Part shown: in pieces, positions 33,101-39,100 of the stretch
How the letters are laid out: each line of letters opens with the position of its first letter
Numbering within the stretch: position 1 is the stretch's first letter
Assembly (NCBI RefSeq): GCF_057098645.1
Contig: NZ_CM169472.1
Length of the DNA: 64,000 bases
Strand: one strand, 5' to 3'
Program-made: the position numbers

Positions 33101-36100
33101 ACACCGCCCAGAATCATGCTGGCTCCAAGTGAAAACAGCATCGTGGTGGCAGAAAAACCACCGGCTGCCAGGGCTGAACCCCATAACGCCATTGATGCCC
33201 CGGCAGTGAAGAAAGAGCCCACGATGGCTGCCGCCCCCAGCACAATCTGCAGTCCACCCTTTCCGGCCCCGGCCAGTCGCGGCACAATATGGATGACCGT
33301 TCCCTCACCCAGCTGTTCGTGAAGACGGGCGTACACCGCCTCCGGTGCCGTGTCATCACCGGCAATACGTATCTGGTACCAGCCTTCGTTCATCTGACGG
33401 CGAAAGCCCGGCACCTGTAACGACAGCGCCCGGATGGCTTCCGCTGCCGTGTTCACATACAGGCTGAGGCGGCGGCCAAATCGTTGTAAATCCCCGTGAA
33501 GGCAGATGCGTGCCAGTGGCGGTGACGCCAGACAGAATGCGTTCGTCGTTGCCATTTTTCGGAATACCTCTCCCGTTTACTCAGTTGTTCAGGCAGATGG
33601 TGAAGCAGCTCACCGTTGCCGCAGTAAATGGCGGCATGGTTCGGTACCGAAGCACCAAAGCAGCACAGCAGAATATCGCCCGCCTGTGCAGAGGACAGGG
33701 GCACCCGGTAAAAGCCGGTGACCGCCATATTGTCCAGGTACAGGTTCTGACCGTTGCGCCACCAGTCATCCTCGCGATGAAAATCCGGCATTTCAGTCCC
33801 CGCCAGATGATAAGCATCCCGGAACAGCGTGTAACAGTCCGTCACCCCGTGCTCAAAGCGCCGTCCTGTCAGATGTGGCACACAGCGGAATTTGTGAATG
33901 TCACCCCGGCAGACCAGCCACCAGGGCAGTGCGCTTTTTATCTGCAGCCGCCGGTCAGCCTCGCTCAGCCAGGGCAGCCCACCGGGATGACTGTGGACCA
34001 GTGCCACAATCTCCCCCTGCATCTCTGCCCGCAGCCAGTCTTCCGGTGCGATACGAAAATACGCCTCCGGCTCTGCAGAAATATTCACACAAGGGATATA
34101 CCACTCCCCCTCCGGCGTGCTTATCACGAAGCCGCACGACTCCGCAGGCGCACACCGCCGGGCATGCGCCAGAATCGCTGATTCAGTCTGTGTCATAAAC
34201 CGGGATTTACTGCGAAAGTTTATTAATGGAAAGGAAACCGCCAAAATTGCCGACATTCCTGCGCAGTTCACACCCGCGCATGCACTTGCTGCATCTGTCC
34301 TTACGGATATCCGTGGTGGGGTTGTCGAACTCATCCGCCACCGCAGGACCGTTATACCCGCATTCATCTCCCCGGTAATCCCACATACAGGTGTTCGCCA
34401 GCATGATGCGACCGGGAAACAGCGCCCCATCCGTCTCGGTCGGTGTAGCCAGCACAAACGAGGCCGTCATGGCTGTCAGCTGCGACATCTGCTCCACCAC
34501 CCAGCGGTCACTCAGCTCCTGCTCCGGGTCCGCCTCCGGATTGCCCGCAACGAAATTCACCGCATCCAGAAAACGGGCATACACCCGGCGGCGGACCACC
34601 GTGGCCCCCACCAGGCTCTGCAGGTCCTCCGCCATCCCGGTGACCAGACCAAACAGATTGGACACCGTCAGCGACGGTCTGGCACTGCTGCCCTTCCCGT
34701 TCATCTCAAAACCGCTGCCGTCAATCGGGTATGCCTGATATTGCCGCCCCTGCCAGGTGACCGCCTCCCCTTTTTCATTCAGCTCATTACAGAAAAAATA
34801 CCGCTCACCACCCTGTACCGTCAGGTCGATTTCCCAGAGCACCACCCGCGGTGACTGCTCTGATTTAACCGACTCGTTCAGGCTTTCTTCATGAATGTCC
34901 TGCATCAGTTCACCACCTGCTCAATCGTACAACTGAAATCACTGTACCGGACGTTATCCGTGACGCTCCACTCACGGCATACCACCCTGACCATCCGGTT
35001 ATGTTTCGGCGGTCGCCATAAAAAGGCACGGTAACCACCATGCCACGATAAAAACTCTTCCAGCCAGCACCGGGTCGCCTCATCCGTCACCCGGAACACC
35101 GCCTGAAACGTCTTCAGTTGAGGATTCAGTCCTGTGGGGCGACGCTGTTCATAACCGTCACCAAACCGCACCCTCACCACCGACGGCTTCTCACTCACCT
35201 GCATCCCTTCACGCGGGACCAGATGCAGCGTTTTTATCTCAGCCACTCAGCATTCCTCCGTCACGTCGCATGGACAGCATCACCGCCTGCACCCGCTGGT
35301 CAATCAGCTGCACAAGGCTGCCCGCAGCTTCCGGCCCTATCTGTCCGTTAGCCCCGTCATTCTGAATGGCGATGTGGTAGACCGGGGAATACACCAGACC
35401 AGCACTGCCGTTCATACTGCCCACCGCGCGTACGCCCAGCGAGCCATCCGCCGCCCGGGTCAGGGGCAAAACCTCATACGCTTTCTTTTTCGGTTCCGGA
35501 TTCAGGGACATCAGGGACACCGCATTGAAGAGCGCCATCAGCGGGTCAATTTTTCCCCGTCCGCTGGCCTGTTTGGTGATAAGAATGGCGTTACCTTTAG
35601 GCTCCACCCGGGCATTGCCAACGCACCAGGCCATCAGTGGCTGACCACCATGCACCAGCACTCCCTCAGCCAGTTTGCGCTCGGTGGTTTTGATGGCCCC
35701 GCCCAGCTTCCAGCCCTGGCTTATCCCCACCACACTCTCATCGGGGATCCCGGCTTCCGCCAGTGAATCCAGAATCTGCCCCACACCTGACGGGTCAATA
35801 CCGATATGATCCAGTAACTCAGCCTCATGAATACGACGCACATACTCCGCCACTTCCGCCGTGTCATCCCCGACCCGACGGACAATCGTCATGTCTCCAC
35901 AGGCCACAAAATCCTGAAACCGGGATGCCTCACTCTTCCGTCTGACCACCGCGGTTTCATGCACCCAGGCATGGCCCCAGCCCAGCCATTCGCGGGTTTC
36001 CCTGTCACGGCCAGTCACGTACATTCCCAGCAGATCATCCAGGCCCCCGCCGTCAATCCCCACCGTCACCACATCAGCGCGCTGCAGGATATCGTCCAGG

Positions 36101-39100
36101 CTGACGCGCCTGCCCTGCTGCTCCCAGAAATCCGCCCCTGCCCAGCGGTCAGAACGCAGGGCAAGACCAATTTCCACATTGGCGTGTTTTGACATGAAAC
36201 CGCGGAAAGTCTCTTCCCCGGCTTCCCGGGCTTTACGATACTCCCGGTACAGAAAGGCCTCATCCACCGAATAGCCGAGATTCGGGTTAACCATGGCGAG
36301 GTTTTCCATCAGCAGGTGAGCCCCGCTTTCCACCATTTCAGGAGGATGCTCAAAAATCACCGGCAGAAAGTGCGGATCATGAATTTTGCCGTCACGGACA
36401 TCCCGGGCGTACTGCAGTTTCTGCCTGAACACCCCGGCAGGCGGTTCATTCGACTGGGTGGTTGTGTACACCACAAACCCTTCCGGACGTGAAGCCAGCC
36501 CGCCGATGGCTTCACGTAGCATGTCTTCCGCTTTGTACTGCTTGCCAAACAGCCACAGTTCATCAATCAGTGTCCCCACGGACTTGATACCGGACACCGT
36601 ATTCGGATCGGCTGCCACCACCTTCAGGGTGGTGTCCGTCACCCGATGGGTGATGGTCCGGATATGTGTCTGCACCTGACAGAGGTCATCCAGATCATCG
36701 TCCCGTCGTACCATATCCCTGGCAGGGTTGAAGGCGTTAGCCGCCACCTCCACGGTCGGGGCCAGAATGGTGTAGCCCGCCGCCTGCCGCCAGTTCAGTA
36801 ACAGCGCCGTCATCATGATCCCCGCGGCCAGCGTGGACTTACTGTTTTTCTTGGGGATAAGGATAAACACTTCCTTGATATGGCGAACACCGGTCTGCGC
36901 ATCGTAGGAGCCAAACAGGGCCGCCACCAGGTCAAACACCCACGGTGCACAGGACTCCCCGAATGTCGGGCTACCCGGTGCATCCACAATCCGCAGTTGT
37001 TTAAAAATCGCCAGTGCATGTGCAGCCTGGTCCGGATAAATCGGAGCCGGAATAATCGACAGCCCCTTTTTCAGGCGCTCTGCCCAGTCCGGGCAGGCCG
37101 TGCTCCACACAGGTATCATCCGTTGCCCTCATTATCATTATTCACCACCAGGCGGGGTGGTGGTGGCACCGCAAAACGGTTAGCCGCTTTTTTCGCCGCG
37201 TCACCTTTTGCCGATTTTTTACCGGCATCCCCTTTTTTGTGGTGCGTGAACTGCGCCAGCTTATAAGCCGCATCCAGCGCCAGCCTGGGGTCGGTATTAA
37301 TGTTCTCCACCAGAAGACGCCCCATCGCTTTCACCGGATCGGGAAGACCGTCCTCCATATACTCAATACCAGGAGATATCACCACGGGCGGTGGCATCTC
37401 CGGATTTGTTTCGTCCGGCTGTGGTATTGCAGCCGCCTCACGGCGACGGGGTTTATCCTCCTGCTCTGATTTTTTCTGCCGGTAAACAGGAACCTCATCC
37501 ACCTCCACCGTCTCGCATTGTTTACGGGCTATAAACGCAAGCACCTCCGGATCTTTTGCCAGCTGCGAGCCTTTAACCCTGGCGGTCTTCGCCGAATAAC
37601 CAGCGGCAATGGCTGACGCTGTTTTGTTTTTCCCGGACATGAGCGCCAGCGCAAATTTTCGTTTTTGCGTTGTCAGCACAGCCTCCTCCCGGGTCCAGAA
37701 CGCACTCAGCCGGGTATGGTTCAGCCCATTTTTCCCGGCGTCTCATGCCGCAAATGTTAACTGCTGCCTGGTTAACATTTGCTGAAAAAGCCAGTTAACA
37801 TTTTTTCCGCACAACAAACTGAATAATAAAGATAAAAACCGCAAAAATGCCCGGACAGCCAGTTAACATGTTAACTGCCCTGAAACGGGAATTTTTTCTC
37901 TGCGTGAGAGGGGGCGCGGTGTCCGGAGCGATCGTTTTTTTCGCCGGATGATCCCCCGTTACTTTATTCGAACCCCTTATAATGGGGTGTTAGCCAGCCA
38001 GACCCGGCATGATTACTGCCCCCAGTCGTCCATGATCCGGGGGGTGATGTCACCGGGTCTGGTGGGGCGCTGGTAACCGCTAATAGGGGTCAGGTCAGGC
38101 ACTTTTGCCGGGACCGTCTGTAACGTGGATGCCGGTACCTGCTCCCCGTGGTTATCTGGTTAACCCATATACAAGGGAGACAGAATGACCGAATCCAGCG
38201 ATTACGAATCCGTCCAGGTCTTTATCGGCGTTGATGTCGGTAAAGATACGCATCACGCTGTAGCCATTAATCGTTCAGGTAAACGCCTGTTCGATAAAGC
38301 ATTACCCAACGACGAAAACAAACTCAGGTCGCTAATATCTGACCTGAAACAACATGGTCAGATACTGCTGGTTGTTGATCAGCCAGCTACCATCGGTGCG
38401 TTACCTGTCGCCGTTGCCCGCTCAGAAGGAGTCCTTGTCGGATACCTCCCTGGACTGGCCATGCGCCGCATAGCCGACTTACACGCCGGTGAAGCTAAAA
38501 CTGATGCTCGTGACGCTGCCATCATTGCCGAAGCTGCCCGTACCCTGCCTCACGCGCTACGCACGCTGAAACTGGCTGACGAGCAAATCGCCGAACTCTC
38601 CATGCTCTGCGGCTTCGATGATGATCTTGCCGCACAGACAACGCAGGCCAGCAACCGTATCCGCGGCCTTCTGACCCAGATACATCCGGCACTGGAGCGC
38701 GTTCTCGGTCCGAGACTTGATCACCCGGCGGTACTCGATCTTCTCCAGCGATATCCCTCACCAGAAAAACTCGCTTCGCTGGGTGAGAAGAAGCTGGCAG
38801 CCCAGCTCTGCAAACTTGCGCCTCGTCTGGGTAAACGCCTTGCAGCAGACATAGCTCAGGCACTGGCCGAACAAACCGTCGTCGTTCCCGGCACGAATGC
38901 CGCTGCCGTAGTACTGCCACGTCTGGCACTCCAGCTCATCACGCTGCGTAAGCAAAGAGACGAGGTGGCGCTTGAGGTAGAACAGCGAGTTCTTGCTCAC
39001 CCTCTTTACCCGGTCCTGACCAGTATGCCCGGAGTCGGTGTCAGGACCGCAGCCAGACTCCTCACCGAGGTCGCCTGCCGCGCCTTCGCCTCTGCCGCAC

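Follow-up and report, generated by a model that had tools for sequence, protein, structure and literature searches.

The open reading frame located at positions 35239 to 37119 on the minus strand of the window (the whole stretch of 64,000 nucleotides that was analysed) is an in-frame fusion of 626 amino acids, terL::H', as established with Pfam, PHROGs and base alignment. Residues 1-550 come from a large terminase subunit of 553 residues and the final 75 from the C-terminus of the tape-measure protein H, with one hybrid codon in between. The fusion, a scar of ordinary prophage decay, belongs to a lambdoid prophage of the PPompW family that E. coli O145:H28 carries at ompW. We consider it highly probable that this defective prophage lost about 10.8 kb by illegitimate recombination, which joined terL in frame to the 3' end of H.

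The terminase part (35470..37119, minus strand) corresponds, in DNA and tblastn comparisons, to codons 1-550 of the 553 codons of terL, and displays 99.7% DNA identity with terL of the prophage PPompW_132418. Residues 1-551 of the reference TerL were aligned by tblastn with the window at 99.8% identity. The domains TerL_ATPase (PF03354, E = 2.7e-11) and TerL_nuclease (PF20441, E = 1.8e-9) were detected by Pfam at residues 63-224 and 276-535 of the fusion, respectively, and no Pfam domain was found past residue 535. These two domains are those of the HK97-like, cos/HNH-dependent type of large terminase. With PHROGs, residues 1-550 matched families of large terminases, including phrog_7622 and phrog_9, and residues 550-626 matched tape-measure families at the very end of their C-terminus. 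The match to phrog_1716 is situated at positions 850-927 of the 943 positions of the profile, and phrog_339, phrog_6747 and phrog_24 are likewise matched at their C-terminal ends. The native TerL of PPompW_132418 (553 amino acids) has the C-terminus ...SLMSLNPEPKKKAYEVFFI, and the length of terL is also 1,662 nt in Escherichia phage JLK-2012 and in O145:H28 RM12761. The fusion has therefore lost the native C-terminus, i.e. the last three residues (FFI), and gained 76 foreign residues (the hybrid one and 75 from H). An extension of about 70 residues beyond the terminase end had been noticed in the sequence-only reading; the extension is real, with this corrected count.

The remnant of H (35239..35466, minus strand) contains the last 75 codons and the stop codon, corresponding to residues 1006-1080 of a reference protein of 1,080 amino acids. 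These 75 residues are 100% identical to the tape-measure C-terminus of PPompW and Stx prophages. When the reference H was compared by tblastn with the 64-kb window, only residues 1004-1080 found a match. In a tblastn alignment of 77 residues, the identity with tape-measure C-termini is 97.4%; the terminase residue just before the junction and the hybrid codon itself account for both differences. The body of the tape measure (about 850-1,100 amino acids), which sets the length of the tail, was not found in the window; 75 of the 1,080 codons of H are left. The stop codon of the fusion overlaps the GTG start codon of M by 8 nt (GTGGCTGA), and the overlap between H and M is also of 8 nt in the reference prophage. 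The resemblance of this overlap to that of lambda H had been recognized beforehand and holds: at the lambda gpH/gpM junction the H stop overlaps the M start, and the fusion uses the same natural stop. In contrast to lambda, neither the body of the tape measure nor the G/GT chaperone genes are present.

The breakpoint was localized by a three-way base alignment in the codon TTG (Leu551; 35467..35469, minus strand), whose first T is a terL base and whose G is an H base, the T in the middle (35468) being common to both genes. Position 35468 was obtained against all three references, namely PPompW_132418, JLK-2012 and the O145:H28 RM12761 chromosome, which have a complete set of genes from terL to J (with a frameshifted portal gene in two of the three). 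This single clean breakpoint replaces the position near 35450 initially proposed. The positions 38624-35468 of the window align with terS-terL and the positions 35471-28001 with the segment from the H 3' end to J. What the window lacks between them amounts to 10,801 bp in comparison with PPompW_132418, 10,811 bp with JLK-2012 and 10,980 bp with RM12761; this gap begins 10 nt short of the terL end and stops 231 nt short of the H end. The reading frames of terL and H are in register across the junction, the sequence of which is the 35-mer GAAAGCGTATGAGGTTTTGCCCCTGACCCGGGCGG. The strict microhomology is of only 1 nt (3 of 4 nt in the motif TTNT), which points to illegitimate recombination. A deletion mediated by an insertion sequence (IS) was rejected, as no IS or IS end is present at position 35468.

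Just upstream of the fusion, terS (37116..37679, minus strand) encodes a small terminase subunit recognized by phrog_641 at 1e-68 and 100% identical to the reference TerS, and its stop codon overlaps the start codon of terL. Directly downstream, PHROGs and tblastn identified on the minus strand the genes of the minor tail proteins M (34905..35246) and L (34207..34905), the tail protein K (a C40 peptidase; 33453..34196), the tail assembly protein I (32875..33555) and the host-specificity/central tail fibre protein J (29059..32532). These proteins match the reference proteins at 95.6-100%, K being 100% identical. The direct succession of the terminase genes and of M, L, K, I and J had been correctly read from the sequence, as had the absence of the head and tail-shaft genes. 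Eleven reference proteins were used as tblastn queries with a threshold of E <= 1e-3: the protease/major capsid protein, a small hypothetical protein, the portal in two pieces, two connector and two minor tail proteins, the major tail protein, and G and T. None of them matched anywhere in the 64-kb window, and genes for the head, portal, connectors, tail tube and chaperones were all undetected there. The tail-assembly chaperone genes G and T, expected ahead of H, thus gave no match in the window. The possibility of head genes located elsewhere in the window was rejected from these searches and from the full collinearity with PPompW. In JLK-2012 (Marienburgvirus, NC_049942.1), the morphogenesis genes follow the same order (HNH, terS, terL, capsid, portal ... 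H, M, L, K, I, J) and terS-terL is 98.8% identical to the window. This phage differs by its lysis, HNH, head and tail sets, all annotated as complete, and by its tail genes, which are 89-93% identical to those of the window.

The prophage spans about 34.5 kb (20585..55037, minus strand), has an imperfect 121-bp duplication of the ompW 3' end at its borders (20585-20705 and 54917-55037) and is flanked by yciE/ompW' on one side and by ompW/yciC on the other. Outside the deletion, it is 97.8-99.9% identical to PPompW of O145:H28. The two prophage ends and the ompW flanks on either side follow PPompW and the O145:H28 chromosome collinearly (99.9-100% identity), which indicates that the loss is internal to the prophage. 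A host outside E. coli or from a divergent lineage was rejected, since the flank is 100.0% identical to O145:H28 RM12761 and RM13516; the value of 98% initially obtained was a ranking effect of a private IS, and 100.0% was reached when this IS was left out of the query. The prophages PPompW of O145:H28 (LC567822.1 PPompW_132418, RM12761) share with the window copy the ompW site, the 121-bp duplication, the order of the genes between int and the effector locus, an identity of 99.9% in the early region and at the effector end, the replacement of the lysis cassette by ISEc20, the truncated HNH gene and the effector cargo. They differ in keeping a head/tail-shaft block of 10.8-11 kb with a frameshifted portal gene, whereas the window copy has no such block and presents the terL::H' fusion, an IS2 and divergent patches in L/M and J. 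The IS2 (25937-27267) is absent from the reference PPompW, and an IS629-like element is inserted in yciQ; both are private events with proper IS ends. At its attR end, the prophage carries the effector locus (nleG, espM, espO; 20238-25936) with 99.9% identity to the annotated counterpart in PPompW_132418. The region expected to hold the 21-bp secondary attB, used for phage-into-prophage integration, is aligned to PPompW without gap at 99.9%.

Several defects are older than the deletion. ISEc20 (IS110 family; 37954..39412, plus strand, boundaries approximate within a few bases) was localized from the record annotation and NCBIfam transpos_IS110, which also identified its transposase (38185..39381, plus strand). 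This element sits between the tRNA genes and terS, at the expected location of the lysis cassette, and cuts off the HNH endonuclease gene. Only the last 53 of the 176 codons of the latter remain (37798..37956, minus strand; tblastn with the HNH protein of JLK-2012), and the alignment with JLK-2012 begins at position 37957. No match to Rz or KilA was found in the window, indicating that the lysis cassette is absent. The IS-associated loss adjoining ISEc20 is separate from the loss at the terL-H junction, and older. The lack of lysis genes and the truncated HNH gene are common to the sibling PPompW prophages, in which the portal gene is frameshifted; these defects predate the deletion, which consequently struck an already dead prophage. 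The sequence-only reading had concluded that the prophage cannot form particles. This follows from the gene content, and was already true before the deletion. The PPompW family has been described as uniformly defective (Nakamura et al. 2021, PMC8112680), and PPompW packaging was undetected in the three strains tested, O145:H28 12E129 and 112648, and E2348/69 (PMC8112680).

According to the preferred explanation, one deletion of about 10.8 kb would have taken out the whole stretch from the terL end to the 3' part of H, i.e. the genes of the protease/major capsid, portal, connector, head-closure, tail terminator and major tail proteins, the chaperones G and T and the first 1,005 codons of H. The ends would have been joined in frame by chance, leaving a nearly complete terminase with 76 additional C-terminal residues that ends at the own stop codon of H. 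The fusion of terminase to the 3' end of H by a single deletion had been anticipated; the fusion is observed, and a single event is the most parsimonious reading of a sequence that would also be compatible with several successive deletions. The in-frame join and the nearly complete terL could be taken as a sign of selection, a weak argument as an in-frame join is expected by chance in one case out of three; the fusion probably has no selected function. On induction, the fusion and M-L-K-I-J might be co-expressed if a Q-dependent late transcript reads through ISEc20, and nothing would be built. The prophage may persist through its cargo, namely the nleG/espM/espO effector locus, paa and its role as landing site for other phages.

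The identity to the reference decreases exactly at the junction, from 99.9% on its left to 97.8% on its right (tail module), where the mismatches are clustered in L/M (34518-35268) and in J. This clustering shows that the tail genes have also recombined with another prophage, and this exchange and the deletion might conceivably be one compound event. In such a case, the block H'-M-L-K-I-J would come from another co-resident lambdoid prophage, joined illegitimately to the terL of PPompW on one side and exchanged by homologous recombination on the other, inside J or past it, instead of a simple internal deletion. We regard this scenario as improbable. Partners would be available, as O145:H28 genomes contain 6-10 near-identical copies of the terL segment, and prophage-mediated segment replacements and inversions are known in this lineage (PMC8112680). 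However, over about 200 nt into H from the junction, there is no real mismatch to the own H of PPompW, the single mismatch counted (35469) being within the 4-nt BLAST overlap at the junction. Moreover, hardly any difference from PPompW occurs in the regions 32500-34500 and 27268-29768, a pattern more in line with patchy gene conversion than with the swap of a block. The att sites at the two ends and the chromosomal flanks on either side have kept their places, and no donor above 97.6% was found for the L/M patch in the phage collection.

Also improbable is the view that the chimeric TerL-H' remains an active terminase and that the headless prophage acts as an accidental satellite by which the effector cargo is mobilised. 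The element has kept int/xis, replication genes, terS and presumably cos, and its DNA might be cut and packaged into capsids, with capsids and HNH supplied by near-identical co-resident prophages; terS-terL modules with 98% identity occur in O145:H28 Stx1a phages. A more exotic variant supposes that the 75-residue tail of H might tether the terminase to the M-L-K-I-J tip complex. Packaging and cos cleavage by TerL require the HNH endonuclease, the portal and prohead partners, and these are absent or truncated in cis. Classification as a phage satellite (PICI, cf-PICI or P4-like) was rejected: apart from one recent deletion, the element shares 99.9% identity with a full-length prophage, and no satellite-specific genes were seen in it. 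The prophages Sp3-Sp15 of O157:H7 Sakai are similarly lambdoid, carry T3SS effectors and have lost head, packaging or lysis functions by deletions and IS (Asadulghani et al. 2009, PMC2669165). According to the same account (PMC2669165), co-resident prophages complement several of them, which are thereby still packaged, whereas packaging of PPompW was undetected (PMC8112680). No terminase-to-tape-measure fusion was encountered in the parts of the Sakai prophage account consulted (PMC2669165).

The junction was found in none of 5,426 complete E. coli genomes or 50,697 phage records, and it is absent from the species-representative genome collection and the metagenome collection. Among 5.8 billion protein clusters, no protein spans it, the best match covering 55-66% of the query. 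The junction therefore looks private to the source strain. This rarity, together with prophage modules that are multi-copy and difficult to assemble in the O145:H28 lineage, would also suit a chimeric read or a mis-join in the assembly, the real morphogenesis region being intact. An artefact is nevertheless very improbable: mis-joins driven by repeats arise in shared sequence and the junction here connects two positions that share no homology beyond an overlap of 1 nt, the surrounding 64 kb are collinear with O145:H28 genomes, and the other private events (the IS629-like element and IS2) are ordinary. Finally, a C-terminal extension native to the terminase family, with head genes encoded elsewhere, was rejected because the reference TerL ends in AYEVFFI, three residues past the junction, as do the full-length terminases of the family, which gave no match to the appended segment, because this segment is identical to tape-measure C-termini and because the window has no head genes.

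The significance of the internal deletion is slight beyond annotation. The 626-residue frame should be labelled as a terL::H' fusion remnant rather than as an unusually long terminase, and the prophage counted as unable to make particles. The deletion offers a clean case of a deletion nearly free of microhomology (1 nt) in prophage decay. As it occurs in no other sequence searched, the junction may serve as a marker of the strain or sublineage within O145:H28. The effector locus and the integration module have outlasted the structural genes, which fits the published view of PPompW as a domesticated cargo platform.

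The fusion ORF (35239..37119, minus strand) is included in a gapless run of minus-strand genes (29059-37679) in the order terS (37116..37679), the 626-aa ORF, M (34905..35246), L (34207..34905), K (33453..34196), I (32875..33555) and J (29059..32532). In the 626-aa protein, Pfam detects the terminase ATPase domain (residues 63-224) and nuclease domain (residues 276-535), and no domain past residue 535. With PHROGs, residues 1-550 are assigned to large-terminase families, and residues 550-626 align with four tape-measure families at the very C-terminus of each (phrog_1716, for instance, over positions 850-927 of a 943-position profile). 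The tape-measure origin of the C-terminus, suspected in the sequence-only reading, was confirmed by tblastn against 50,697 phage records: in 131 records the last 88 residues match where an annotated tape-measure gene ends, shortly before M (97.4% over 77 residues for the top matches). The intact TerL of PPompW_132418 has 553 aa and the C-terminus AYEVFFI. The fusion is composed of TerL residues 1-550, a hybrid TTG (Leu) codon 551, residues 1006-1080 of the tape-measure protein H and the stop codon of H itself. This stop and the GTG start of M overlap over 8 nt, and H and M do so over an equal length in the reference. The native terminase runs 15 residues further than '...SLMS', and only three terminase residues are lost.

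A megablast of 34800-37800 against phages gave a match only for query positions 1-2333, corresponding to the window down to 35468, in prophages that have head genes after terL. The window was then aligned locally with LC567822.1 (PPompW_132418, E. coli O145:H28). Positions 38624-35468 correspond to the reference terS-terL (99.75% identity) and positions 35471-28001 to the stretch that begins in the 3' part of H and includes J (97.6%). At the base level, terL reads ...TATGAGGTTTT up to the junction and TTTCATATAA after it, H reads ...GCCATTAT and GCCCCTGACC, and the window reads ...TATGAGGTTTTGCCCCTGACC. The breakpoint maps to the same coordinate, 35468, against each of the three references (PPompW_132418, phage JLK-2012 and the O145:H28 RM12761 chromosome). 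The alignments are most simply explained, as in the sequence-only reading, by a single deletion that joined the terminase gene to the end of H, the junction being displaced from the position near 35450 first proposed.

The interval absent from the window represents 10,801 bp in PPompW_132418 (record positions 19657-30457), 10,811 bp in JLK-2012 and 10,980 bp in RM12761. According to the reference records, the lost genes encode a protease/major capsid protein, a small hypothetical protein, the portal, a head-tail connector, a head closure protein, an HK97-gp10-like protein, a tail terminator, the major tail protein, and G and T; H has lost its first 1,005 codons. The reference proteins of this block have no tblastn match anywhere in the 64-kb window.

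The strict overlap at the junction is one T (35468), or three of four bases (TTNT). The junction is a product of illegitimate recombination; homologous recombination and an IS-mediated event were rejected. An in-frame join is expected by chance in one case out of three, and nothing points to selection for the chimera. A 601-nt junction-spanning query (coverage of at least 80%) found no place in 5,426 complete E. coli genomes, and the junction was not found in the phage collection. Neither the GTDB species-representative genomes nor the JGI metagenome contigs contain the 35-nt string across the junction. The exact 626-aa protein is not among approximately 15 billion sequences, and a 170-aa junction-spanning query recovered, from 5.8 billion clusters, only one-side proteins (coverage of 55-66% at best). 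On these searches, the deletion appears to be confined to the source strain or to a small sublineage that has not been sampled. An assembly artefact is an unlikely origin of the terL-H junction: repeat-driven mis-joins arise within shared sequence, whereas non-homologous positions are joined here.

To the right of the junction, L/M (34518-35268) and J (29768-32500) contain patches that are 3-10% divergent from all other PPompW copies, the rest of the prophage being 99.9% identical. The best record of the phage collection for the L/M patch reaches 97.6%, and no better donor was present there. These patches probably result from gene conversion by another lambdoid prophage of the same genome, exchange between co-resident lambdoid prophages being common in the O145:H28 lineage (PMC8112680). 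Exchange and deletion may have been one and the same event or two. In the PPompW of RM12761 (L005 coordinates 34695-36353), an Arc/Arc/Ant (antirepressor) insertion separates L from K; neither the window nor PPompW_132418 has it, which again suggests that modules are exchanged around the tail genes.

The prophage spans approximately 20585-55037, with an imperfect 121-bp repeat of the 3' end of ompW as its boundaries, and is collinear with PPompW_132418 (99.89% identity from int to terL, 99.91% in the effector locus and 97.8% in the tail genes). ISEc20 (IS110 family, 37798-39412 including the HNH remnant) occupies the place of the lysis cassette, between the Q/phage tRNA region and terS, and beside it the HNH endonuclease gene is reduced to its final 53 codons. 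This lysis/HNH defect is older and common to the O145:H28 PPompW copies; sibling copies additionally carry a frameshifted portal. Because ISEc20 replaces the lysis cassette and the HNH gene is truncated, the prophage was dead already before the deletion of the head/tail block. The sequence-only reading was right that no particles can be formed, the head and tail-shaft genes being absent from the window, and has to be corrected in that this ability was lost earlier, through the older defects. Of the complete E. coli genomes examined by Nakamura et al. 2021 (PMC8112680), 44% carry PPompW; no packaged PPompW DNA was detected there after induction.

The region of the fusion ORF is most likely an inert remnant. 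Should Q-dependent late transcription continue through ISEc20, induction would yield a 69-kDa TerL-H' protein, H' denoting what remains of H, together with the tip proteins M, L, K, I and J. These would assemble into nothing, because the portal, capsid, tube, tape measure and an intact HNH partner are missing. PMC2669165 documents trans-complementation of other defective EHEC prophages by sibling prophages; for PPompW a search for it gave a negative result (PMC8112680), and we consider it very improbable here. The fusion represents ordinary prophage decay, an event of a familiar type.

The chromosomal flanks are 99.94-100% identical to RM12761, except for an IS3-family (IS629-like) element in yciQ (DUF2207; 7967-9266), which matches an O157 IS629 copy at 96.7% identity, with the ends TGAACCGCCCCGGG... 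and an apparent 3-bp target duplication. This gene-disrupting insertion is private, since RM12761 lacks it. An IS2 copy (25937-27267; TnpB of 301 aa, NCBIfam PRK09409, 1e-219), downstream of J near the lom/IS256-remnant region, is absent from PPompW_132418 and RM12761. Downstream of Q, ARAGORN predicts three phage-borne tRNA genes (39496-39736), Arg(tct), Lys(ttt) and Met(cat); the RM12761 RefSeq annotation has only two at the corresponding place, with the CAT one labelled tRNA-Ile, and the prediction in the middle, 'Lys', is perhaps a degenerate tRNA or a pseudo-tRNA. An 823-aa exonuclease ORF (50981-53452) is intact in the window and RM12761 and frameshifted in PPompW_132418; decay strikes different genes in different PPompW copies. 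Finally, 20238-25936 aligns with the annotated T3SS effector locus of PPompW_132418 (two nleG genes, espM and espO) and the adhesin gene paa is present (43358-44116): the virulence cargo is kept in spite of the structural decay.
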